Assembly: GCA_041661275.1 (NCBI GenBank)
Contig: JBAZUU010000004.1
Span: 71,480 to 135,479 of the forward strand
Source of the DNA: Parcubacteria group bacterium
GTDB taxonomy: Bacteria; Patescibacteriota; Minisyncoccia; Moranbacterales; UBA2206
Direction of reading: 5' to 3'
Length of the DNA stretch: 64,000 bases
Positions 36,076 through 49,039 of the stretch are shown piece by piece. Position 1 is the first letter of the stretch. Every line of letters starts with the position of its first letter. The notes beneath the pieces were generated by a model that was not told the DNA's origin, did no database searches, and saw only the letters and a list, made by a program, of their open reading frames with translations. A program made the translations under genes and the position numbers.

Positions 36076-36948
36076 ATGAAAAAAAATAATAGGAAAATAA
36101 AAATACTCAAACTATCAGTGGCAGTTGTCATAATGTTTTCATATTTGTCATATCCTGCCCTGGCTAAAGAAATAAATATTGCTAATGTTTTAGAGTTGGT
36201 GAATGAAGCTCGACAAAAAAATGGCGTAGCCACCTTGGATGAAAATCAAAAATTGGACAAGATCGCGGCGGACAAATTGGAAGACATGGTGAAGAATAAT
36301 TATTTTGCCCACACGTCTCCCAAGGGAGTCAATCCGTGGTTCTGGTATGAAAAAAATAGTTATGACTATAAGTACGCGGGAGAAAATCTGGCTATCAATT
36401 TTATGCGCGCCGAAGATCAGCAGGACGCCTGGATGAAAAGTCCGACTCACCGAAAAAATATTTTGAATCCCAACTATCAGGAAATTGGAGTTGCGGTCGG
36501 AGCGGGGGAGGTCAATGGACAGTTGGGAATAATTGCCGTTCAGGAATTTGGAACCTTGGCCAGCGCCGCCGGAGACGTTTCAAAAGAAGGGGAAAACTTT
36601 TCCGCGCACAAGGATGAGGGATTGGTCAAGGACGGCGTGAAGATAACCCCGCAAGTTTTGTCGGTGAAAGACTTTACCGAAGAGAAATTGAAAAATGAAA
36701 TTCCAGGAACCAAAAGCAATTCCAGTTGGACGAGAAATATATTGGACAAGTTCAACGCCAATAGTCCTGCTATGTATAACTACATGAGCCTTCTCGCCGT
36801 CTTCTTAATGCTTGCTTCAATCGTTCTGGCCTCAGCTTCATTTCTCACAGTAGCCGCGCATGAGATTATGATTTGCGATGAGTTGCGTCGAAAAGTGTAT
36901 GCCGACCACGAAGTATTAATAAAACATGACCGGATTTTGATATCGTAG
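36076..36948 (+). CDS. CAP/SCP/PR-1-domain secreted protein with N-terminal signal/TM and C-terminal TM segment
   Basis: VNEARQKNGVATLDENQKLDKIAADKLEDMVKNNYFAHTSP...GENLAINF...WMKSPTHRKNILNPNYQEIGVAV matches PF00188. Confidence 0.75.
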   Translation: MKKNNRKIKILKLSVAVVIMFSYLSYPALAKEINIANVLELVNEARQKNGVATLDENQKLDKIAADKLEDMVKNNYFAHTSPKGVNPWFWYEKNSYDYKYAGENLAINFMRAEDQQDAWMKSPTHRKNILNPNYQEIGVAVGAGEVNGQLGIIAVQEFGTLASAAGDVSKEGENFSAHKDEGLVKDGVKITPQVLSVKDFTEEKLKNEIPGTKSNSSWTRNILDKFNANSPAMYNYMSLLAVFLMLASIVLASASFLTVAAHEIMICDELRRKVYADHEVLIKHDRILIS

Positions 36949-38357: not shown

Positions 38358-39404
38358 ATGAAAAAAATCGTAGTGTCTGGTCTTGCTCTGGTGTTTCTTT
38401 TGGGCGCGTCGGGTGCGGCAGCGGGAGTAGAAAAAAATGGAATAGATTTTTCCAGGCCTATCAAAGTTGATGACCTGAAAATCGAAAAGAAGTTGATTCT
38501 TTCCAAAGAGCAACGAGCTTTAGGAGAAAAAGGTTCAAAAGGCAAGCCTACTCCACCGCCGGTGACAGTTGAAGGAGCGACCGGAGTTTTGGGAACGCCT
38601 CTGGCGCTGGGCGCCAAAAAATATGCCATTTTGGTCGGACTGAGCAATTATGCGGGAACCGCTAATGATTTATGCATCGATTCTCTAAAAACAACAGCCA
38701 ACTACCCAAATAGTTTATGCGCTGATGCCGATGCGGCTAATATGGAACTGACACTGAAAGATAAATATGGATATAATGATACAAATTCGACTATCTGGCG
38801 TTTCAGTGATGCTGATGCCAATTTTGCTGCGATCCAATCAGCCAAAGATTATATTTTAGCCAATGCCAAAGCTGGAGACGAAGTAGTTTTCTTTTTCAGC
38901 GGACATTCAGCCACTTCCAACAGAAATCTTTTCAAAAATGGCGACCGGTTGAATGTAGGTCTGGCTCTGTATAATCTGCCATATGATTCGCGAGAAGTCA
39001 TTTGGGACGGCTATCTCCAGAATTGGTTTGGCAGTTTAGCCACTAATCGCATTGTGTTTATTTTTGACACTTGCCATGCCGGTGGGCTGGCCAGTTATCT
39101 GCAAGGAACCGGTCGGGAAGTGGTGATGTCCAGCGCCGAAAATCAGTATTCCTATACATATTATTTGGGAGGGGAAAGCAATATGCTTGGAGAAGGATCG
39201 TTTGCTCACTTTTTTAACGTAGATGGGATGTATAATGGCTTGGCAGATGGTTATAACATGTTTGCGCCTAACGGAATTGACGGTAAAGTTGCGGTGGAAG
39301 AAGCCTATAGCTATGCTAAAAAATTCGTGCCCATCGATACTTCCAATCATCAGATTCCTGCGCTCAATGACAAGTTTACTGATGATTTAATGCTTGGTTA
39401 TTAA
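38358..39404 (+). CDS. Secreted caspase-family (peptidase C14, orthocaspase-like) protein
   Basis: Signal peptide. YAILVGLSNYAG ... GDEVVFFFSGHS (catalytic His) ... IVFIFDTCHAGG (catalytic Cys). Confidence 0.7.
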   Translation: MKKIVVSGLALVFLLGASGAAAGVEKNGIDFSRPIKVDDLKIEKKLILSKEQRALGEKGSKGKPTPPPVTVEGATGVLGTPLALGAKKYAILVGLSNYAGTANDLCIDSLKTTANYPNSLCADADAANMELTLKDKYGYNDTNSTIWRFSDADANFAAIQSAKDYILANAKAGDEVVFFFSGHSATSNRNLFKNGDRLNVGLALYNLPYDSREVIWDGYLQNWFGSLATNRIVFIFDTCHAGGLASYLQGTGREVVMSSAENQYSYTYYLGGESNMLGEGSFAHFFNVDGMYNGLADGYNMFAPNGIDGKVAVEEAYSYAKKFVPIDTSNHQIPALNDKFTDDLMLGY

Positions 39405-39515
39405 GAAAATAAAGTGGGAAGGGATAAAGGTCGAGGGTGTTAGTAACTGTTCAACATCTTTTCTTTGATATATACTTCTTTGCAGAGCTTTGTTAAAACA
39501 AAAAAACACAAAACT

Positions 39516-39851
39516 ATGCAAAGAAAAATGTATCCAAGCGATGTCACTCGCGAGCAATTTGAAAAAATCAGACCGATTCTCGATACGGCCTGCAAGAAAA
39601 CAAGGCCGAGAACCATCGACCAGTATGACGTGTTCTGCGCCCTGCTGTACCTGCTGAAATCCGGCTGCCAATGGCGAATGTTGCCATCGGATTTTCCCAA
39701 ATGGCGCACCGTCCATCATTACTTTTCTCTCTGGAGCCGGAAGGAAAACAAAAACACCCCCAGCGTATTGGAGGAGGTCTTAAAAAAAATTGGTCAGCGA
39801 CGAACGCTTGAGAAATGGGAGATTATGCAAAACGAGCTTGGGTATCGTTGA
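39516..39851 (+). CDS. IS5-family transposase OrfA (DUF4096 N-terminal domain)
   Basis: YDVFCALLYLLKSGCQWRMLPSDFPKWRTVHHYF is the hallmark of IS5/IS427 OrfA. Confidence 0.8.
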   Translation: MQRKMYPSDVTREQFEKIRPILDTACKKTRPRTIDQYDVFCALLYLLKSGCQWRMLPSDFPKWRTVHHYFSLWSRKENKNTPSVLEEVLKKIGQRRTLEKWEIMQNELGYR

Positions 39852-40311
39852 TGCCCAAAGCGTGAAAAATACTGAATCAGCGAGACAGAAAGGCTATGAC
39901 GCAGGCAAAAAAGTATCCGGTATTAAGCGGCATATTGTCGTGGACACCAATGGATTACCGCACGCAGTTACCATTACGACAGCTGATGTGACTGACAGAG
40001 ATGGAGCCATTAAGGCTTTTGAGACAAACAAAAAACACCTGTCGAAGGTGAAGAAAATACTGGCCGACGGCGGTTACACAGGCAAACCGTTTGCCGAAAA
40101 AGTGAAGAAGATTTTGAAAGCGGAAACAGAAATTGCTAAAAGAAATGAATTGCATACATTCAAAGTTATTCCGAAAAGATGGGTGGTGGAAAGAAGTTTC
40201 TCTTGGTTGGAAAAATGTCGGAGATTATGGAAAAATTGCGAAAGAAAACTTAATTCAAGTTTACAAATGATGGTTCTGTGTTTCGTGAGAGTTTTGTTGA
40301 AAAGATGTTGA
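39790..40311 (+). CDS. IS5-family transposase OrfB (DDE domain), expressed by programmed frameshift from OrfA
   Basis: GIVDAQSVKNTESA...GIKRHIVVDTNGLPHAV...ADGGYTG...VVERSFSWLEKCRRL is the DDE_Tnp_1 signature. Confidence 0.8.
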   Translation: MVSDERLRNGRLCKTSLGIVDAQSVKNTESARQKGYDAGKKVSGIKRHIVVDTNGLPHAVTITTADVTDRDGAIKAFETNKKHLSKVKKILADGGYTGKPFAEKVKKILKAETEIAKRNELHTFKVIPKRWVVERSFSWLEKCRRLWKNCERKLNSSLQMMVLCFVRVLLKRC

Positions 40312-40370: not shown

Positions 40371-40871
40371 ATGAAAAAAATACTTATTGGAGGAAGTCTT
40401 GGTATTTTCGCATTTTTTGCCTTCTTTGCAATGCCGGCTTTTGCGGCAGGCAGATTTGACCAATATGGCTATAATGATACTGCCAGAATTTTTAACGGCA
40501 CAGGAGAGTCCTGGTCTTTGGCAAAAGGATTGCCTGCTGATTATCTTGGAGCGTATGCCAAAGATAAACTAGTTATGAAATGGAACGCTGAATGGGATAG
40601 GGGAAATGCAGAGGGCTGGTCCAAGGGACCATACAATGCCTGGGAGAATAATGAATGGAATGGAAAAGTGAAAGGTGGTTCCGGCGCTGTTTGGCATTAT
40701 AAAATAGTCTGGGTCGGCGATTATGTTGCAAATCCAAGCCTGATACCTGATGGAGCATACGGAATATGGGGACAATTCGCGACTATTATGGATCAGGGGC
40801 ATGACCCAAGTTATGGGCCGGGACATTTTTGGTTCGCACATGCCAGTCCAACCGGGTACGGGGCTTACTAA
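40371..40871 (+). CDS. Secreted Trp/Gly-rich hypothetical protein (166 aa)
   Basis: Signal peptide MKKILIGGSLGIFAFFAFFAMPAFA. The upstream region is paralogous to that of 41398. Confidence 0.5.
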   Translation: MKKILIGGSLGIFAFFAFFAMPAFAAGRFDQYGYNDTARIFNGTGESWSLAKGLPADYLGAYAKDKLVMKWNAEWDRGNAEGWSKGPYNAWENNEWNGKVKGGSGAVWHYKIVWVGDYVANPSLIPDGAYGIWGQFATIMDQGHDPSYGPGHFWFAHASPTGYGAY

Positions 40872-41397
40872 GAGTCAGAAACTTTAAAAAACAACCCAGT
40901 ATTTTGAGGGGTTGTTTTTTTATGTCATAATATTTGGCTTTGTCAAGCCAAAATGTGGATAACTTTCCTTGCATTTTTTTTGCCGGCTGATAGAATAAAA
41001 AAGCAGATGAGGGAAAATAAAATATTTTTCAAAAAGGAAAAAAGATAAAAGGAGGGAAAAGGGGTTAAATCGTAAAATACAGTTGAATAATAGATATGGA
41101 TATATTCTTGATGAAAAGGATATTTTTATTTAAGAAGGCCAGCCGGCGTTCATTATTTGTTTAGTGAATAGCGGTTGGCTTTTTTTGTTGTTCTCTACGA
41201 ATTACGAATTTTAAAGAGCAAAATTTAATTCCTCCGATCGGAGGAGCCCAAAGAGGAGGAGGGTTTAAATTTTTTTAAAGCCAACCCCGGTTGAATAGTC
41301 CGCTTCGCGGAATTCAACGGGGCAAGTAATGGTCGAGGGTGTCAGGCCGCCCAGAGCGTCTGGAAATTAATTAGTAATTAACTAGAATAAATAAACT

Positions 41398-42000
41398 ATG
41401 AAAAAAATTATATTAAGCTTAGCGGCCATTGTTGCTGTCGGAGCTGTGGCAGGATATGGATCTTATGCTCTGTGGAGTGATACTGAAACCAGTACTGGAA
41501 ACAGTATTACAGCTGACAAGTTGGATTTGGTATTAGCAAGTGTCCCCCTGACTATTGCTAATGTTCATCCCGGGCAAACAGGAAGCAGTGCTGCTATGAC
41601 AGCTAAAAATGATAGCAATACTGTCAATGGAACCTTGACTTATACAGTCACTGGATTAGTTGATAATGAAAATGGTTGCGTGGAGCCAGAATCTAACCCA
41701 GCAGAAGGAAATGACCTTACTTGTGGTACGCCCGGAGCGGGGCTAGGAGAACTTTCGGGTCACGTAAAGGTAGGTTTTATTGCTGATTTAAACGGAGATG
41801 GCACATATGAAACTACTATTCCCGAGGCGTATCTGAATACTCTTAGCGGTACTACTACCATAGGAACTGTGGCCGCTGGCGTTACTGCCAGTGTTCAAAT
41901 GACATATACCGTAGATAATTCAGTTACTCCTTTTGCAGACAATATCTTTATGACTGACAGCTCTACATTTGATGTTAATTTCAACTTAACTCAGATATAG
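41398..42000 (+). CDS. TasA/camelysin-like protein with SipW-cognate class signal peptide
   Basis: N-terminus ...GYGSYALWSDTETSTGNSITADKLDL matches the TIGR04088 pattern (xYAxFSDxExSxxNxFxAxxLDL). ~200 aa. Immediately upstream of sipW. Confidence 0.6.
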   Translation: MKKIILSLAAIVAVGAVAGYGSYALWSDTETSTGNSITADKLDLVLASVPLTIANVHPGQTGSSAAMTAKNDSNTVNGTLTYTVTGLVDNENGCVEPESNPAEGNDLTCGTPGAGLGELSGHVKVGFIADLNGDGTYETTIPEAYLNTLSGTTTIGTVAAGVTASVQMTYTVDNSVTPFADNIFMTDSSTFDVNFNLTQI

Positions 42001-42097
42001 TCCTGGTTATTTTTGACGCGGGAAGATTTTCTCGCGTCTGCTTGGGAAACTCAATGACGACTGTGGGTCGGTTTGGGTTTTCAAAGCGGACTAAATT

Positions 42098-42625
42098 ATG
42101 AAAAAAGCGTACTATATCACCCAAAACATATTTGTCACTCTGGCCATTGCCATTGTCCTGTTTCTTTTGGCTGCCAGATTTTTGCCAAAATTCCATTACG
42201 GGCTATATATTATCCAGTCCGGATCGATGCAGCCGACTTTGAAAACAGGAAGTATCGTAGTCGACAAAAAGCAGGCGGATTATCAAAAAGGCGAAATCAT
42301 TACTTTTGCCCGAAGCAAAAAAGAGATCATCACCCACAGAATCACAGAAGTGACAGGCGAAGGAGAAAATATATTATACAAAACCAAGGGCGATGCCAAT
42401 AATACGGATGATTTGTTCCTGGCCAGGAAAAATTTGGTTTTGGGAAAAGTAATATTCGCGGTTCCGTATTTCGGATATATTATCGCTTTTGTCAAAACGA
42501 AAACAGGACTGGTTCTGCTAATTATCATTCCAGCCCTTTGGTTTATAGTAGAAGAGGCGTTGAAAGTCAAAAAAACAATCAGAGAGAAAAAAAATAAAAC
42601 TAAAGGTAATGAACAGGAGGAATAA
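42098..42625 (+). CDS. sipW: Signal peptidase I, SipW (archaeal/ER) type
   Basis: IQSGSMQPTL (catalytic Ser), ITHRITEV (catalytic His region), KTKGDANNTDD and the C-terminal TM helix are collinear with B. subtilis SipW. Confidence 0.75.
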   Translation: MKKAYYITQNIFVTLAIAIVLFLLAARFLPKFHYGLYIIQSGSMQPTLKTGSIVVDKKQADYQKGEIITFARSKKEIITHRITEVTGEGENILYKTKGDANNTDDLFLARKNLVLGKVIFAVPYFGYIIAFVKTKTGLVLLIIIPALWFIVEEALKVKKTIREKKNKTKGNEQEE

Positions 42626-44552
42626 AAAAAATAAATATGCGGAATTAATAACGGTTGTTTGCGCGATGTTGTTGGCTGTTGTTTCTCCTGTTTTTGTTTA
42701 TGCTGACTATCAGGATAACGAAACGACTAGTGGCAATTCTTTTTCCGCTTCCAGCTTGAATGCGGAAGTTTCTTCCACTCAATCGGGACTGGAAGTGGCT
42801 TTGACGGCTGCTGGAATGGTTCCGGGAGACAGCGTCAGCCGGGACGCCAATATTGATAATGTCGGAGGTGAAAATTTCAAATATAAAGTGGAATTTGAAA
42901 AAGTGAGCGGAAGCGACGCTCTTTGCGACGCGCTCCAACTGGAAGCAAAACAGGGCGGCGCGACGGTATATAATGACGATCTCCTTGATTTTACTGTGAG
43001 CGGCGGGACTTTGAATTCAGGAAATGATGACGATTGGGATTTTACTGTTACCTTGCCGACAGGGTCGCCCAATAGTTTGGAGGGATTGAGTTGCAATTTT
43101 AAGTTCGTCTTTACCGCCTGGCAGACAGATTTTGCGAATCCAACCGCGGGCTGGGTGGACGAAGAAGAACTCGATGGCAACAATATCACGACTGGTGATT
43201 GGGATCCGGTGATAACGGGCGTAGCAAATACTAATCCGCTGGATACCAAAGGCCAGACCAACGATGAGATGGCTAAAGTTAGTGTTTCCTGGAGCACCAG
43301 CGAAAACACCACTTCCAACGTGGTTTATGACACAGTCACTCGCGCGGATTGCACCGGATACGCGAACCATAATACTCCTGTTGACGCAGTGGCTGACAAT
43401 ACTAACCATGAAGTGACACTTAAAAATCTTTTGGCCGGCACTACATATCATTATCGCGCCGTGAGCCGCGACGTGGGCGGAAATCAGGTTTGCTCCAGTG
43501 AATATTCATTCACCATCCCTGCTTCCACGACAGATATTCCGTCATCAGACATAGTTCTCAATGAATTTGTGCCCCATCCTTCTGGTTCGGAAAGTGGCGA
43601 ATGGGTGGAATTATATAACAAAAGCGGATCGGATGTCGGAGTCAATGGCTGGTATATTTATGATTCTACGGATTCCGGTGGCGTAATGATAAGTTCGGCC
43701 AATACTGATACGGGCGGAACGACTGTTTCAGCCGGTGGTTATCTCGTTGTTTATCTCAATAAATCCTATCTTAATAATAGTGGTGGCGATACCGTGAAAC
43801 TGTATAGCGGCTTATTCGGTGTCGGAACATTGATTGACAGCCACAGCTATACCGGAACAATTCCCGAAGGCAAATCTTTTGCCAGGTTTCCTGATGGTGT
43901 CGGGGTTTGGATAGATCCGGATGTAACGCCTGGAGAAAAAAATGAATTGAAGCCGGAAGAAAAAGAGGCGTTTCTGACGCAAACAGCAAACGCTTGCTTT
44001 GACGGTAAAATGCGAAAAGAAAGCAAGGAAAATATCTGCCAGGGAGAATTTTTGAAATATCTGGGGATGGTAAACAAGAAAAAAGACATTGAAATGACCG
44101 ATGCAATGTGGGAAAAAATGAAAACCGTCAGCCCGGCAGTGGAAACAATGAAGGAAAAAGAAGCTACAGATGTGAAAACAGAACCCGCCTCGACTCGCGA
44201 AGACGCTACGTCGACGCGAGGCGGGAAAACAACGCCGGCAGGTGGAAAAGCGGATATAAAAAAAGAAGAGGTAGCCGCTCCCTTGGAAGAAAAGGATAAA
44301 AAAGTGGAAGATGCGCCTGCTGTTGAGGTTGCTCCGGCGCCGAAAGAGGAAATAAAACCGGAAGAAAAAACTATTCCGGAAGAAAAGAAAGTGGAAGTGA
44401 AGGAAGTGCCAAAGGAAGATCCTAAAGTCGAAGAAAAGCCTAAAGAAGAACCTAAAATCGAGGAAAAACCCAAAGAAGAAGCGCCAAAAGTGGACGCTGT
44501 TGTTTCGGAAGTTTTTGATTATTTTAAAATAAATTATATTAATTTATGTTAG
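42609..44552 (+). CDS. Large SipW-cognate-signal surface protein with Fn3-like and lamin-tail (LTD) domains and a K/E/P-rich repetitive tail
   Basis: N-terminus VYADYQDNETTSGNSFSASSLNAEV. Fn3-like block KVSVSWSTSENTTSNVVYDT...TTYHYRAVSRD. LTD block LNEFVPHPSGSESGEWVELYNKSGSDVGVNGWYIYD...GGYLVVY. Tail PKEEPKIEEKPKEE... Confidence 0.6.
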   Translation: MNRRNKKNKYAELITVVCAMLLAVVSPVFVYADYQDNETTSGNSFSASSLNAEVSSTQSGLEVALTAAGMVPGDSVSRDANIDNVGGENFKYKVEFEKVSGSDALCDALQLEAKQGGATVYNDDLLDFTVSGGTLNSGNDDDWDFTVTLPTGSPNSLEGLSCNFKFVFTAWQTDFANPTAGWVDEEELDGNNITTGDWDPVITGVANTNPLDTKGQTNDEMAKVSVSWSTSENTTSNVVYDTVTRADCTGYANHNTPVDAVADNTNHEVTLKNLLAGTTYHYRAVSRDVGGNQVCSSEYSFTIPASTTDIPSSDIVLNEFVPHPSGSESGEWVELYNKSGSDVGVNGWYIYDSTDSGGVMISSANTDTGGTTVSAGGYLVVYLNKSYLNNSGGDTVKLYSGLFGVGTLIDSHSYTGTIPEGKSFARFPDGVGVWIDPDVTPGEKNELKPEEKEAFLTQTANACFDGKMRKESKENICQGEFLKYLGMVNKKKDIEMTDAMWEKMKTVSPAVETMKEKEATDVKTEPASTREDATSTRGGKTTPAGGKADIKKEEVAAPLEEKDKKVEDAPAVEVAPAPKEEIKPEEKTIPEEKKVEVKEVPKEDPKVEEKPKEEPKIEEKPKEEAPKVDAVVSEVFDYFKINYINLC

Positions 44553-45448
44553 GTAGAAAAATAAAAATCATCACATACGCTTTTTTCTTCTCGATTCTTT
44601 TTGGCTTTGCAGGGGCGGCTCAAGCGGCGGTTTCTCTCGATGTCAGCGGAGTGCATGACCATATGTTCAGTGAAGACAATATATATCCGGGATGGACCGA
44701 TAGCCATACGGTGAATGTCAAGAATACCAGTGATGGTTCTGAAGTGATTGATGTTTACGCCACTTTTGATATTACTGATAATTCCGATCTAACCAAAAAA
44801 ATTCATTTGTATGTCATAAGAGAGGCTGACAATAAATATATGCTGGGCGGAGTCGGTGACAGAATAACTTTGGATGAAGCGGATGGTGACAGGATATTTA
44901 TCGATCGATTGGACGCGGGAGAATCGGAAGATTATAAAATAAAACTTCGTTTCGATTCTGACGCCGGCAATGAATATCAGGAGCTTAGTTCTGATTTTGA
45001 CATAGATTTAGGGTTTGAATCAGATGAAGTTCCGGGCGGAGGAACGCCCTTGCCAAAAGTTGTTTCTGGTGAGAAGCCCCCGGAAGAAGTGGCCGGAGTT
45101 TCTACGCCGGAAGAAGGCGCTGAAAATCAGGGGGCGCAATTGGGAGCAGAAACAACTTGTCAGAGCTGGCCGCAATGGATATGGATAGTCGCCATCTTGG
45201 CTTATGCCTTGATACTTCTGAAATACTTGCAGAATAATTATAAAGCCGAAAAAATGGTTTGGAAATTCGGTCTCGTCTGGACTGTTGCGGCTGTCACTTT
45301 CTGGTATTTTAGGGACAAATGTCGGGAATATCAGTGGTTTTTGTATGGTTCAATAATAATTGCTGTTGCTAGCTATTTTATTTATCTCTGGATGCTGAAA
45401 AAGAAAGTGAAAAGCGGAACTTTGCCGGTTGATCATACGCAGGAATAA
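44546..45448 (+). CDS. Secreted beta-rich protein with C-terminal triple-TM anchor (possible second TasA-like/anchor component)
   Basis: Signal peptide followed by a ~180-aa acidic beta-rich domain, then three TM helices. The start overlaps the end of the preceding gene. Confidence 0.45.
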   Translation: MLGRKIKIITYAFFFSILFGFAGAAQAAVSLDVSGVHDHMFSEDNIYPGWTDSHTVNVKNTSDGSEVIDVYATFDITDNSDLTKKIHLYVIREADNKYMLGGVGDRITLDEADGDRIFIDRLDAGESEDYKIKLRFDSDAGNEYQELSSDFDIDLGFESDEVPGGGTPLPKVVSGEKPPEEVAGVSTPEEGAENQGAQLGAETTCQSWPQWIWIVAILAYALILLKYLQNNYKAEKMVWKFGLVWTVAAVTFWYFRDKCREYQWFLYGSIIIAVASYFIYLWMLKKKVKSGTLPVDHTQE

Positions 45449-45548
45449 AGATTGACTTAAAACTGTATAAGGTATAAAATGCCAATCACTCGAGATTGGC
45501 ATTTTTGATTGGAGTGAACCGTTCTTTGAACACAAAGGGGATATAATC

Positions 45549-45908
45549 ATGAAAATTCTTGTGATCGATGATGAAGAAGGACTTAGTTTCATCATAAGTA
45601 AATTCCTAAAATCGAGGGGCTTTGAAACAGCCCTTGCTACTAATGGACAGGAGGGAATAAAAATCATCGGCTCTAGTGAGATCGACCTAGTGGTTTCCGA
45701 CATCAATATGCCGGGGAAAAGCGGGTTGGATGTATTGGAATACGTTCGGTCTAATCATCCAGGCATACCGGTCATCATGATGACCGGCGAAGCTACCAAA
45801 AAAGAAAGAGAAAGCGCCTTAGCGTTAGGTGCTTTCGGTATCATAAAGAAGCCATTTCTTTTGTCTGATCTTCTGGGCAAAATCAAGGAGGCGCTCGGAA
45901 AGGAGTGA
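45549..45908 (+). CDS. Stand-alone response-regulator receiver (CheY-like)
   Basis: MKILVIDDEEG...DLVVSDINMPGKSGLDVL...GAFGIIKKPF. The phospho-acceptor Asp and a Lys are present. Confidence 0.8.
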   Translation: MKILVIDDEEGLSFIISKFLKSRGFETALATNGQEGIKIIGSSEIDLVVSDINMPGKSGLDVLEYVRSNHPGIPVIMMTGEATKKERESALALGAFGIIKKPFLLSDLLGKIKEALGKE

Positions 45909-46200
45909 CTCTGTTTCTCTAACTGTAAACGCAAAGGAAAGGGAGATGAAAACAACGGGTAGCAGTGATAGTTGGAGCTGGGTATCATTTCTTGTGCTGG
46001 TTTCCCCACTGCTGGGATTCGGACTCTTTCTTCTTTGGGTTTTTGGATGCCATGGAGCGTCCAAAAAAGCCCAAAAAGAAAGGAGGAAAAAAAGTGTGGA
46101 ATACAAAAAGGCGTAGGCAAAAATGCCTGCCTAGAAAGGGAGAAAGATCGAAGGCTTTCCTCCCTTTTCTTTTTGCCTTTTTCTATTATAGAATTGATAT

Positions 46201-46923
46201 ATGGACTATAAATATAACGGCATAATTTTGTCCAAGATCGATATCGCGGAAGTTGATCGGATTTATAATATCTATACACTGGAAGCGGGAAAGATACGGG
46301 TGATTGGAAAGGGAACAAGAAATCCCAATGCTAAACTGGCGGGAAGTATTGAGCCGGTGACTAGCGCCGAAATATATGTTTCCCGTACAAAAGGTCTAGG
46401 GAAAATTACCGGAGCTATTGTCCTTGATAATTTTTCGCGCTTGAAATCCGATTATGAATATCTGAACAAGGTTTTCTATGTTTTTGGGATTTTAGAAAAA
46501 ATAATTACCAACGAAGAAAAAGACGAAAAAGTCTTCGCGCTTCTTTTGACTTATCTAAAAATACTGGAAGAACTGGCAGAAAAAGGCAAGGAAAAAGAGA
46601 AGATAGAGATTGTCACTCTCGGATTTATATTTAAACTGCTTGAAGCTGCCGGTTACGGGCTTAATATGGAAAACTGCGTCAGATGCGGAACCAGACTCAG
46701 ACCAGAAAACAACTTTTTCAGCGCGCCGTCCGGAGGAGTAGTTTGCTCCGGGTGTGCCGATTTTAGCGCGAAGAAAGTAAGAATTGAAAGCGCTACTATA
46801 AAATTGATCCGGATATTTTTGGGGAATAAGTTGGAAAATTTTGCCAAAATATCCGCTTCCAGAGCAGATATAAAAAATACGGAAGCGATAGCGGGGGAGA
46901 TGGTGAGGTGGATAGTGGGATAG
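46201..46923 (+). CDS. recO: DNA repair protein RecO
   Basis: N-terminal OB fold (GIILSKIDIAEVDRIYNIYT) and zinc finger CVRCG...CSGC. Confidence 0.8.
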   Translation: MDYKYNGIILSKIDIAEVDRIYNIYTLEAGKIRVIGKGTRNPNAKLAGSIEPVTSAEIYVSRTKGLGKITGAIVLDNFSRLKSDYEYLNKVFYVFGILEKIITNEEKDEKVFALLLTYLKILEELAEKGKEKEKIEIVTLGFIFKLLEAAGYGLNMENCVRCGTRLRPENNFFSAPSGGVVCSGCADFSAKKVRIESATIKLIRIFLGNKLENFAKISASRADIKNTEAIAGEMVRWIVG

Positions 46924-47143: not shown

Positions 47144-49039
47144 ATGTCGCTATCTGATATCAAAAGAAAACTATATCAAAAAGAACAGGAAAAGAACCTG
47201 TCGGAACATGACAAAAGTTCTTACGACCCGCATCACGCAATTTCTGGGCAAACGCAGGATTCTTCCGGCGATCTTTGGGCAAAAAAAGAAATGGGACTTG
47301 GCGTCAAAGAAAAAGTGGCTATCAAAAAAGGCGCTTACGTTTTAGGCGGAATTCTGGCGGTTATTTTTATCATCATGATAGCCTATTTTATCCGGCTGTC
47401 TTCCTTTTCAGCCGATCGAGTGACGGTGTCGATAACCGGAGCGGATCGGACGGACAGCGGTAAATTTCTGACCTATGAGATCAGTTATAAAAATGATAAT
47501 CGGGCAGAATTGAAAAATGCCCAACTGAAAATTACTTATCCGGGAGATTTCAAGCCGGAAGACAATACCAATTTTGTCGAAGAAAGCCCGACCAATGGAA
47601 CATATTCTCTTGGCACAATTGCCGGTCACGGGACGGGAAAAGTAACTTTTAGCGGAAGAATCTATAGCCCAAAAGGCGCTCTGGTTTATCTGAAAGCCCA
47701 ATTGTTATATAACCCGGGAAGCTACAGTTTGCGTTATACCAGTGAAAAACAGTTGGGGATAAATGTTGTCACTTCACCGATAACTCTGGAAGTCGCAGGA
47801 CCACAAACTTTGGCCAGCGGAGACGAGATAGGCTATATGGTCAGTTTCAAAAACGATGGAGAAACGGATCTCAATGATATAAAAATAAAGATCGATTATC
47901 CTGGCAGATTCACTTTTTCCACATCTTCTCCGAAAAGTTTTGAAGGAAATAATATCTGGTATGTCGGATTGCTTTCTCCGGGTCAAACTGGAAAATTAAC
48001 GGTAATTGGAAAACTGGAAGGAAATACCGATGAAGTAAAGAGTCTTAAAGTGTACGTCGGTTCTACGGAAAAAGGGAGCTTTGTCAGTTTCAATGAAGGA
48101 AGCGCTGACACCAGAATTGTCGGCTCGGCCATTGCTATAACGCAGACAGTGAATGACCTGACCAGTCTCAATGCTAACGCGGGCGATCTTTTGCGCTTCG
48201 GCATAGATTATAAAAATACAAGTGAAATAGGGCTCAAAAATCTGATTCTGACAGACAGAATTGACAGTCCGGTTCTGGATTATAGCTCGCTTGAAGCAAG
48301 CGGCGGACATTTTGACGCCAATAGCAAAACTATTACCTGGAAAGCGTCTGATCATCCGGAACTGGCCGGGATCGAACCAGGCGCTGGCGGAAGAGTTGAG
48401 TTTACTGTGAAAGTAAAAGAATCTATTCCGGTGGCGAGTACGAACGATAAAAATTTTGTCATTTCCAGTATCGTGAAGATTGATAGTCCTGACATCCCCA
48501 CGTCTATTTCCACGAATAAAATTATCTCCGGAAATAAAATTGATGTGAAGCTTAATTCCAAGCTGTTTCTAGCTGTCAAAGGATTTCATAAAGACTCTAA
48601 TATTACTAACTCCGGGCCGGTTCCTCCTAAAGTAGGCCAGGAAACAACGTATGCCATCCATTGGATAGCGTCAAATATTAACAATGACGTGAATAACGCC
48701 AGGGTGGAAGCAGTATTGCCCACCTGGGCGACAGCGACAGGAATAGTATATCCGGAAGGCGCGAACATCACATATAACCAGCGAGACAATACTGTCGTTT
48801 GGGAAATAGGCAATATGAGCGCTGGAACTGGCGTGCTGTCAAGTCCCAAAGAAGTTTCTTTCCAGATAAAAATTATGCCTTCGCCCGACCAAAAGGATAA
48901 ATTGATAGACATTCTGAAACCATCAACTTTCAAAGCCAAGGATGCTTTTACGGGAGATGAAATTTCAGCGACGGCTGAAGGAAAAACAACCCATCTTGAG
49001 GAAGACAGTAGCTTGGATTCGAAAGAGAGGGTGGAGTAG
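47144..49039 (+). CDS. Membrane-anchored DUF11/CARDB-like repeat protein (631 aa)
   Basis: N-terminal TM segment. At least four ~110-aa repeats with the YxxSYKNDxxxxLxNxxLxxxYP pattern. Confidence 0.55.
   Translation: MSLSDIKRKLYQKEQEKNLSEHDKSSYDPHHAISGQTQDSSGDLWAKKEMGLGVKEKVAIKKGAYVLGGILAVIFIIMIAYFIRLSSFSADRVTVSITGADRTDSGKFLTYEISYKNDNRAELKNAQLKITYPGDFKPEDNTNFVEESPTNGTYSLGTIAGHGTGKVTFSGRIYSPKGALVYLKAQLLYNPGSYSLRYTSEKQLGINVVTSPITLEVAGPQTLASGDEIGYMVSFKNDGETDLNDIKIKIDYPGRFTFSTSSPKSFEGNNIWYVGLLSPGQTGKLTVIGKLEGNTDEVKSLKVYVGSTEKGSFVSFNEGSADTRIVGSAIAITQTVNDLTSLNANAGDLLRFGIDYKNTSEIGLKNLILTDRIDSPVLDYSSLEASGGHFDANSKTITWKASDHPELAGIEPGAGGRVEFTVKVKESIPVASTNDKNFVISSIVKIDSPDIPTSISTNKIISGNKIDVKLNSKLFLAVKGFHKDSNITNSGPVPPKVGQETTYAIHWIASNINNDVNNARVEAVLPTWATATGIVYPEGANITYNQRDNTVVWEIGNMSAGTGVLSSPKEVSFQIKIMPSPDQKDKLIDILKPSTFKAKDAFTGDEISATAEGKTTHLEEDSSLDSKERVE

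Follow-up and report, generated by a model that had tools for sequence, protein, structure and literature searches.

Within a 64,000-nucleotide stretch of a Parcubacteria group bacterium genome (contig JBAZUU010000004.1, positions 71,480 to 135,479; referred to here as the window), four neighbouring genes encode a small TasA-like protein (200 aa), a SipW-type signal peptidase (175 aa), a secreted protein with a lamin tail domain (LTD; 647 aa) and a protein with three transmembrane (TM) segments (300 aa). Our proposed reading, to which we give a probability slightly above one half (about 0.55), is that the 647-aa protein serves this member of the Candidate Phyla Radiation (CPR) as an accessory subunit in a donor-strand fibre that is TasA-like and depends on SipW. 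In TasA fibres the N-terminal strand of one subunit (residues 28–38) completes the sheet of the next (PMC9674648). The evidence comes from the domain identities of the 647-aa protein, from a three-way paralogy among the window proteins that differ in the presence or absence of a donor motif, from a conserved operon, and from fusions and minimal variants at related loci. By analogy with known fibres, the protein may be a TapA- or TafC-like tip or initiator subunit, with the LTD as its distal binding module.

A preliminary description of this DNA had presented the open reading frame (ORF) at 42609–44552 as a modular adhesin. The same gene call, with neighbours of 200, 175, 300, 119 and 240 aa, is found in public assemblies, where an identical protein (P0001; in NCBI, JGI and ENA) is named at NCBI 'MAG: lamin tail domain-containing protein [Parcubacteria group bacterium]' (MAG, metagenome-assembled genome). 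The peptides quoted at the time (TTYHYRAVSRD, LNEFVPHPSGSESGEWVELYNKSG, GWYIYD and EEKPKEEPKIEEKPKEE) are all present. What had been overlooked is a SipW-type signal peptide plus TasA-like domain in residues 1–205, a helical module at residues 446–522 and a hydrophobic stretch of 17 residues that ends the protein outside its repeat.

The N-terminal domain is a remote TasA homologue

A Foldseek search of the full-length AlphaFold2 (AF2) model against the PDB returned nothing but tandem Ig/Fn3 arrays of a generic kind (titin, contactins, ciliary proteins) in which the individual domains were not resolved, and the N-domain was therefore modelled alone. The model of residues 28–205 (mean predicted local distance difference test, pLDDT, 89.4; predicted template modelling score, pTM, 0.83) finds its best PDB match in chain 8aur_A of the TasA fibre (E=7.2e-5, TMq 0.58). 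Sequence profiles point the same way. A profile of 41 homologous N-domains (A3) places two TasA structures first in the PDB (8aur, E=0.0042; 5of1, E=0.007), the next match being at E=0.89, and 17 of these 41 sequences individually match the Peptidase_M73 family PF12389, the best at 9.8e-8. Two cysteines, Cys106 and Cys162, do not vary among the 20 nearest homologues. The N-domain thus belongs to the TasA/camelysin superfamily by remote homology.

Judging from the sequence, signal peptidase would cut the protein after Ala32. This register agrees with cleavage of TasA between A27 and A28, the invariant D36 being aligned to TasA D31. The signal peptide, at residue 8, is the single hydrophobic segment of the protein. 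Its n-region, MNRRNKKNKYAE, lacks an RRxFLK-type consensus, and we reject the protein as a Tat substrate.

Three paralogous cores differ in their donor strands

The 647-aa protein shares its jelly-roll core with both the 200-aa and the 300-aa protein, and the three differ in what surrounds this core. The 200-aa protein has an N-terminal donor motif followed by the core, and ends there. The 647-aa protein has a donor motif (residues 33–51), the core and an extra strand (residues 181–205), followed by an Fn3-like module, the LTD, the helical module and a tail. The 300-aa protein has the core with neither donor motif nor extra strand, and continues into a linker and three TM segments. These assignments were made by comparing A3 with profiles of six major-subunit-like proteins of the 200-aa type (A5) and of nine ectodomains of the 300-aa family (A4). 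The A3 and A5 profiles align (hhalign probability 98.5, E=2e-15) over the donor motif and the core as far as its last strand, which is also the end of the major subunits. A3 and A4 align equally clearly (probability 98.6, E=7e-16), over A3 columns 26–150 only, so that the shared region excludes both the donor motif, on its N-terminal side, and the extra strand, on its C-terminal side. This second relationship is seen at the profile level only, the N-domain giving no direct BLASTP match to the 300-aa protein. A5 also matches TasA (5of1 and 8aur, E=0.012 and 0.02), and A4 found no solved relative by sequence (best E=0.14, spurious).

The 200-aa protein is our candidate for the major fibre subunit. 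It matches the cognate_SipW model TIGR04088 above its cutoff (E=2.6e-6, 27.4 bits against 19) and Peptidase_M73 in Pfam below the gathering threshold (GA; E=0.001). Its donor region resembles that of the 647-aa protein in BLASTP (E=5e-5). A hidden Markov model (HMM) built from the first 26 mature residues of the major subunits matches the N-terminus of nearly all LTD-protein N-domains at 10–38 bits, including the 647-aa protein at 16.7 bits (independent E-value 8.6e-6), and in the A3 profile search the same motif aligns to TasA residues 28–54.

The strand that follows the core of the 647-aa protein is also donor-like. It resembles the N-terminus of the 200-aa protein (BLASTP E=0.019), and the donor HMM recognises the corresponding post-core segment in register, and more weakly, in many homologues (best scores 11.3, 8.5, 7.5, 7.2 and 7.0). 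Six of its residues (G181, D184, E186, I193, G196 and W198) are nearly invariant. In both AF2 monomer models the strand at 183–195 is confident and integrated into the fold, and the N-terminal motif is of low confidence in both. The second strand is absent from the major subunits and from the anchor protein.

The operon recurs across Patescibacteria

Scanning GTDB species genomes gave 70 loci. The best-matching ones all come from Patescibacteria (Buchananbacteria, Saccharibacteria, Berkelbacteria, Shapirobacteria and Adlerbacteria) except for one MAG labelled Bdellovibrionales. In that case (L003, contig CAZXUS010000009.1) a MAG with the label 'uncultured Bdellovibrionales' carries the complete operon, which is either a binning error or a non-CPR occurrence. 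We compared the 11 best loci (L001–L011) by tblastn with the window proteins and by ORF reading. A sipW gene lies directly 5' of the LTD protein gene in all 11. TasA-like genes precede sipW in eight of them by one or other method, none being detected upstream of sipW in L001 and L010, and a homologue of the 300-aa protein follows directly 3' of the LTD gene in L001–L008 and L010. Adjacent genes in these loci overlap by a few to a few tens of nucleotides in longest-ORF calls. Two loci carry three to four tandem TasA-like genes of 299–568 aa ahead of sipW (L009, 4874–9231, Adlerbacteria; L011, 3868–8738, Parcubacteria group), which suggests several shaft or adapter subunits.

In the window, the product of sipW matches the SipW model NF046067 at E=1.3e-37, below its equivalog cutoff, and scores above the cutoff of TIGR02228 (E=1e-31) and above GA for PF10502. 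The gene ends ...AAT GAA CAG GAG GAA TAA, and the ATG of the LTD protein gene lies 17 nt before that stop, giving an overlap at 42609–42625. The preliminary description had placed a 17-nt overlap at the other end of the gene and argued from it for translational coupling with the triple-TM gene. The overlap there is in fact 7 nt (ATGTTAG, 44546–44552), and the argument for coupling was drawn from the wrong overlap. The next gene does encode a triple-TM protein as described, with a signal peptide and three C-terminal hydrophobic segments; it is our candidate for the membrane anchor and terminator of the fibre. A promoter and terminator scan of 40800–46300 gave no usable operon boundaries.

Related loci also show how the parts of the LTD protein can be rearranged. 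SipW and the LTD are fused in P0061 (PF10502, LTD and PF16656), in P0089 (PF00717 and LTD; four member sequences on six contigs) and in an ORF of L002 (5901–7775). Such single polypeptides, in which SipW, donor motif and LTD are joined, may be self-processing. At the other extreme are minimal LTD proteins encoded after sipW, which consist of a signal peptide, a donor motif and the LTD, with no jelly-roll core: 186 aa in L006 (1423–1983) and 190 aa in L008 (7778–8350), both Berkelbacteria, and 358 aa in L009 (9824–10900), Adlerbacteria. Their donor motif lies 20–28 residues ahead of the LTD's VVLNEF, a position collinear with that of the second strand in the long forms, which therefore have the look of fusions between a TasA-like subunit and, behind it, a 'donor strand plus LTD' cargo.

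The Fn3-like module is an optional part. L004, L005, L007 and L010 have LTD proteins without it, and in these loci the anchor protein encoded downstream has an Fn3 of the same type (for example L004, 8169–9563); the module has therefore moved between two operon partners. The downstream TM-anchored paralogue of L001 also has an Fn3 of the purple-acid-phosphatase type. In P0026–P0028 a second LTD stands in place of the Fn3.

A proposed assembly and the alternatives to it

The four window genes map one-to-one onto the scheme of TapA and of the haloarchaeal tafi, the 647-aa protein corresponding to TapA/TafC, the 200-aa protein to TasA/TafA, the signal peptidase to SipW/TafD and the 300-aa protein to TafF. 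It is for this reason that we propose a tip or initiator role for the 647-aa protein. The protein would be exported by Sec and cleaved after Ala32 by the SipW encoded upstream, which would expose the N-terminal donor strand (residues 33–51). The second strand (residues 181–205) would complete the protein's own jelly-roll in cis. With its fold completed in this way, the protein could give its strand to a 200-aa subunit but would not readily accept one. Its place would then be at a fibre end, where it would act as initiator and tip in the manner of Bacillus TapA or of TafC in the haloarchaeal tafi, and display an Fn3 spacer, the LTD for binding, a helical module stapled by cysteines and a disordered, acidic tail. 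The donor strand left free at the opposite end would be taken up by the 300-aa protein, which may tie the fibre to the membrane as TafF does; we suggest it as the tether because it has the same core, no donor strand and three TM helices.

Several points weigh against this proposal. Taken singly, the 647-aa protein falls short of the PF12389 threshold (13.5 bits against GA 22.5, E=0.063, residues 28–87 only) and has no TIGR04088 match at E<=0.1. The structural likeness of its N-domain to TasA is moderate (TMq 0.58, root mean square deviation 11), with other Ig-like folds close behind, and the second strand resembles the donor motif weakly (the same BLASTP E=0.019; HMM at most about 11). A closed groove does not follow from the cis strand: TasA as a monomer likewise complements itself with a cis strand, which polymerisation displaces (PMC9674648). 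L009 has no TM paralogue downstream, nor could one be identified in L011. For the LTD, a function in prokaryotes has yet to be established (PMC6085458). No fibre has been seen to date in a CPR organism with this operon, and its assembly is wholly inferred.

One alternative is the adhesin of the preliminary description, that is, a free-standing, SipW-processed surface or matrix protein in which the TasA-like domain is a mere spacer, the N-terminal motif serves only for SipW recognition and the LTD binds a ligand on host cells or in the matrix. We regard it as the strongest of the alternatives, and still rather unlikely. The LTD and Fn3-like domain calls stand under it as well, the TIGR04088-type motif is defined as a signal-peptide feature, and the 647-aa protein is far larger than, and unlike, the putative major subunit; the undemonstrated fibre and the two loci without an identified TM-anchored paralogue also fit it. 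However, the protein has no anchor of its own (no LPXTG, no C-terminal TM) and would therefore be lost from the cell unless held. A conserved trio of paralogous cores, in which donor strands are present or missing in a complementary pattern, is hard to explain otherwise than by a fibre, and the minimal proteins made of donor motif and LTD need a partner for retention. An adhesive role as such is plausible, but incomplete as a description, the TasA-like start and the conserved fibre-type operon making a fibre subunit more likely than a free-standing adhesin. That the protein is a SipW substrate, also put forward at the time, gains from the overlapping sipW gene, the adjacency in 11 loci, the fusions and a signal and donor region like that of its neighbour, and is weakened by the absent TIGR04088 match; the cleavage itself is predicted.

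The protein could also be an internal or decorating subunit, whose cis strand is displaced so that it both accepts and donates, with LTDs shown laterally at intervals for bundling or multivalent binding. Monomeric TasA, which opens on assembly, offers a precedent (PMC9674648), and the 647-aa protein has both a full donor motif and a full core. Against this, the extra strand is nearly invariant and limited to LTD-bearing proteins, and the minimal variants, having no core, can only donate. The precedents TapA and TafC are moreover terminal (PMC10151520, PMC11821415). An internal position thus appears improbable, and we continue to favour the fibre tip.

Domain organisation and the role of the lamin tail domain

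The features of the LTD protein and of the operon are collected in Table 1. Both domain calls of the preliminary description hold up against Pfam HMMs. The LTD (PF00932) matches at residues 311–415 with E=4.9e-14 (53.1 bits against GA 34.3; model positions 4–108 of 109), in agreement with the precomputed Pfam annotation of P0001, and is the best-conserved part of the family. The Fn3-like module matches Pur_ac_phosph_N (PF16656) at residues 221–302 with E=1.3e-8 (35.7 bits against GA 30). The classical fn3 family PF00041, of related fold, remains below threshold in this protein (19.7 bits against GA 25), so that PF16656 fits better.

Table 1. Features of the operon and domain map of the LTD protein (window coordinates; residues refer to the 647-aa protein)
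Feature	Residues	Position	Strand	Basis and remarks
TasA-like 200-aa protein		41398..42000	+	SipW-type signal peptide, donor motif ALWSDTETSTGNSITADKLDL, jelly-roll core; nothing beyond last core strand
SipW-type (archaeal/ER-type) signal peptidase I, 175 aa		42098..42625	+	NCBIfam, Pfam
LTD protein gene		42609..44552	+	647-aa secreted modular protein; coordinates include stop
Signal peptide	1–32	42609..42704	+	MNRRNKKNKYAE n-region, hydrophobic core, predicted cleavage between VYA and D; read from sequence
Donor-strand-type motif DYQDNETTSGNSFSASSLN	33–51	42705..42761	+	BLASTP, donor-motif HMM, profile alignment
TasA/camelysin-like jelly-roll core	52–180	42762..43148	+	AF2, Foldseek, profile search
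Second, donor-like strand GWVDEEELDGNNITTGDWDPV	181–205	43149..43223	+	BLASTP, donor HMM, AF2
Fn3-like module (purple-acid-phosphatase N-terminal type)	206–310	43224..43538	+	PF16656; optional insert in family
Lamin tail domain	311–445	43539..43943	+	PF00932; pLDDT above 90
Cys-pair helical module (C463, C477)	446–522	43944..44174	+	AF2
Disordered E/K/P/A-rich tail	523–630	44175..44498	+	Composition, pLDDT
Tandem repeat in tail, 30 nt = PKE[ED]PK[VI]EEK, 2.4 copies		44408..44480	+	TRF score 97, 83% matches
Hydrophobic/aromatic last 17 residues VVSEVFDYFKINYINLC		44499..44549	+	AT-rich start region of next gene
300-aa protein		44546..45448	+	Signal peptide, TasA-like core, acidic/Pro-rich linker, three C-terminal TM helices (sequence, hydrophobic segments)

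The helical module that follows the LTD comprises helices at 449–463, 479–484, 498–507 and 510–521 in the AF2 model, with block-mean pLDDT above 90 to about residue 500 and then 88 and 62 over residues 501–520. It is conserved in more than half of 72 homologues and has two conserved cysteines, C463 and C477. A Pfam search with the C-terminal 206 residues gave nothing credible and left the module without a match. A phmmer search of 1.84 billion proteins returned five representatives at E<=1e-3 and no context from outside; P0002 and P0008 among them are already family members, and P0115 matches in six short stretches.

The low-complexity tail had been described as a (PKEE)n array reminiscent of a cell-wall-spanning stalk. 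A disordered tail of about 108 aa is real, being rich in E (23%), K (20%), P (13%) and A (11%) with pLDDT below 50 from residue 524, and it contains a short 10-aa repeat, but this is not a regular (PKEE)n array. The tails of homologues cannot be aligned and are mostly acidic and disordered with little Lys, from which we conclude that the conserved feature is an acidic disordered extension rather than the PKEE repeat. A stalk finds no support in a tail of unconserved sequence and in a protein that has neither LPXTG, an LPxTG-like motif nor a C-terminal TM. A sortase-anchored, Gram-positive type of adhesin is likewise rejected, with LPXTG absent and the signal peptide as the sole hydrophobic segment. 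We also considered the last 17 residues as a membrane anchor and rejected it. They are too short and too polar, and among about 20 aligned homologues only P0008 ends in a similar way; the hydrophobic ending is probably incidental.

For the LTD itself, suggested roles in prokaryotes are membrane association and help in nuclease action (PMC6085458, PMC5118699), and the preliminary description had pointed to DNA as a ligand. The net charge is −10 for the LTD (median −16 in 71 homologues), −7 for the tail and −49 for the mature protein (pI 4.4). Simple DNA binding is disfavoured by these charges, and for so acidic a protein DNA is an unlikely ligand of the LTD. The same holds for the wider idea that the protein captures extracellular DNA, by its LTD, its Lys-rich tail or both, for uptake by a nucleotide-auxotrophic CPR cell. 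LTDs do occur in extracellular nucleases and ComEC-like proteins, related LTD proteins contain an OB-fold (P0094, P0108) or bear JGI names such as 'predicted extracellular nuclease' (P0100) and 'metal-dependent hydrolase' (P0078, P0081, P0082), and the nuclease ExeM is less active in vitro without its LTD (PMC6085458). Yet the LTD of ExeM is dispensable in vivo for degradation of extracellular DNA (PMC6085458), Pfam detects no nuclease or OB domain in the 647-aa protein, and the homologue tails are, as noted, mostly acidic and poor in Lys. DNA capture is therefore very unlikely. A camelysin-type (Peptidase_M73) surface metalloprotease, as the weak PF12389 match and the family name 'metallo-endopeptidase' might suggest, can be dismissed, the 647-aa protein having no HExxH motif and TasA, the structurally characterised member of that family, being a fibre subunit and not an enzyme (PMC9674648).

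Comparison with known fibres and LTD proteins

The closest parallel to the proposed fibre is the Tat-fimbriae (tafi) of Haloarcula hispanica. Here TafC forms the tip, carries an extra lectin-like domain and supplies the first donor strand, TafE is an adapter, TafA forms the shaft, TafD is a dedicated peptidase, and TafF, a TafA-like domain with a membrane span, takes up the final strand and serves as the anchor (PMC11821415). The window operon shares the dedicated signal peptidase and the small major subunit (PMC11821415). It also shares a larger subunit that combines a subunit-like domain, a binding domain and a donor strand, which in tafi is modelled as the tip initiator, and a paralogue with a C-terminal membrane span, which in tafi accepts the last donor strand. 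It differs in its Sec/SipW-type signal peptides, which are not canonical Tat signals (RRNKK without the subsequent hydrophobic consensus), and in a distal part made of LTD and Fn3 where TafC has a laminin-G-like domain, so that the likeness to TafC is one of function and not of membership. No adapter subunit or TafG (DUF5305) homologue was seen here, the likeness of the subunits to TasA/PF12389 is detectable, no counterpart has been described for the second, cis donor-like strand, and the organism is a CPR bacterium, not an archaeon.

In Bacillus subtilis, as in the window, the SipW gene lies between the genes of its substrates (tapA-sipW-tasA), and TasA has a comparable N-terminal donor strand. 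The N-terminus of TapA resembles the TasA donor strand and starts the fibre (PMC9674648); the Ig fold of TapA is complete in itself, and the protein can do without its C-terminal part (PMC10151520). Both systems thus have an accessory protein whose N-terminus is donor-strand-like, whose own fold is complete and whose C-terminal part is disordered (PMC10151520, PMC9674648). On the other hand, TapA has a V-set Ig fold and no LTD or Fn3, whereas the 647-aa protein has a TasA-like jelly-roll; Bacillus has no membrane-anchored TasA paralogue; and the gene order here is tasA-like, sipW, accessory, anchor. General Pfam, NCBIfam and PDB searches, none of them aimed at TapA, returned no TapA match, and the resemblance is functional only.

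The system of archaeal bundling pili (ABP), AbpA/AbpB, of Pyrobaculum calidifontis likewise pairs a TasA-like donor-strand pilin with a larger accessory protein (PMC9245690). For AbpB, the authors of that work suggest that the distal beta domains could act as adhesins and that the N-terminal part starts the filament (PMC9245690). The ABP locus differs in having no dedicated signal peptidase, and AbpB is TapA-like, not TasA-like, and has no LTD. With ExeM the 647-aa protein has in common a PF00932 domain on an exported protein (PMC6085458), but it lacks a catalytic domain and has its LTD appended to a fibre-subunit-like domain; the function of the LTD is unresolved even in ExeM (PMC6085458). 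A donor-type strand placed covalently after a pilin core, finally, is found in engineered donor-strand-complemented chaperone-usher pilins (for example 6fm5, CsuA/B, and 6s09, FimA), which are among the Foldseek matches of the N-domain. These constructs are artificial and unrelated in sequence, and the likeness in arrangement is inferred.

Significance for the Candidate Phyla Radiation

The kinds of component described here (LTD, Fn3, TasA-like domain and SipW) were already known, as was the LTD annotation of the protein, and a survey has noted PF12389 homologues in Patescibacteria (PMC9245690). In the open-access literature we found no description of the operon, of LTD-carrying TasA-like subunits or of a second donor-like strand; searches for LTD with Patescibacteria gave no papers, and those for SipW with Patescibacteria and TasA with Saccharibacteria gave no description of the operon.

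Apart from type IV pili, little is known of how ultra-small, host-dependent CPR bacteria attach to their partners. The four-gene module is conserved in Parcubacteria-group MAGs (including Buchananbacteria and Adlerbacteria), Saccharibacteria, Berkelbacteria and Shapirobacteria. With it the CPR would gain a second type of appendage, one that is chaperone-free, the assembly logic of TasA/TapA and tafi would extend to this radiation, and the prokaryotic LTD would have a concrete, testable context. What appears to be a natural fusion between a subunit and the donor strand of a cargo would further make a tidy case for how donor-strand fibres start and end. As a tentative generalisation, the CPR/Patescibacteria might possess a widespread, undescribed Sec/SipW-dependent TasA-like fibre, with a donor-less paralogue as anchor and a self-complemented, LTD-presenting cap or initiator, by which these episymbionts would grip host cells or matrix. 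The LTD would in that case gain its first defined role in prokaryotes, as a fibre's adhesive tip. Should the fibre reading be wrong, an ordinary, already annotated LTD surface protein would remain.

Neighbouring genes

Directly 3' of the operon lies a gene for a stand-alone response-regulator receiver domain of 119 aa (45549–45908, plus strand), with no kinase or output domain seen nearby. Receiver-domain matches also occur in four of the LTD-only loci (L013, L045, L053 and L061), all of them outside the fibre operon set L001–L011. About 1 kb upstream of the operon is an IS4/IS5-family transposase (39465–40311, plus strand) in two overlapping ORFs (DUF4096, 39465–39851; DDE_Tnp_1, 39790–40311), which looks like a frameshifted or programmed-frameshift insertion sequence (IS). 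Adjoining it, a secreted 348-aa protein (38358–39404, plus strand) contains a caspase-like Peptidase_C14 domain (E=1.5e-7). A 290-aa protein (36076–36948, plus strand) has a CAP/SCP (cysteine-rich secretory protein) domain (E=1.3e-18). Another large surface protein near the operon is a membrane-tethered protein of 631 aa (47144–49039, plus strand) with DUF11 repeats (PF01345, E=8.9e-15).

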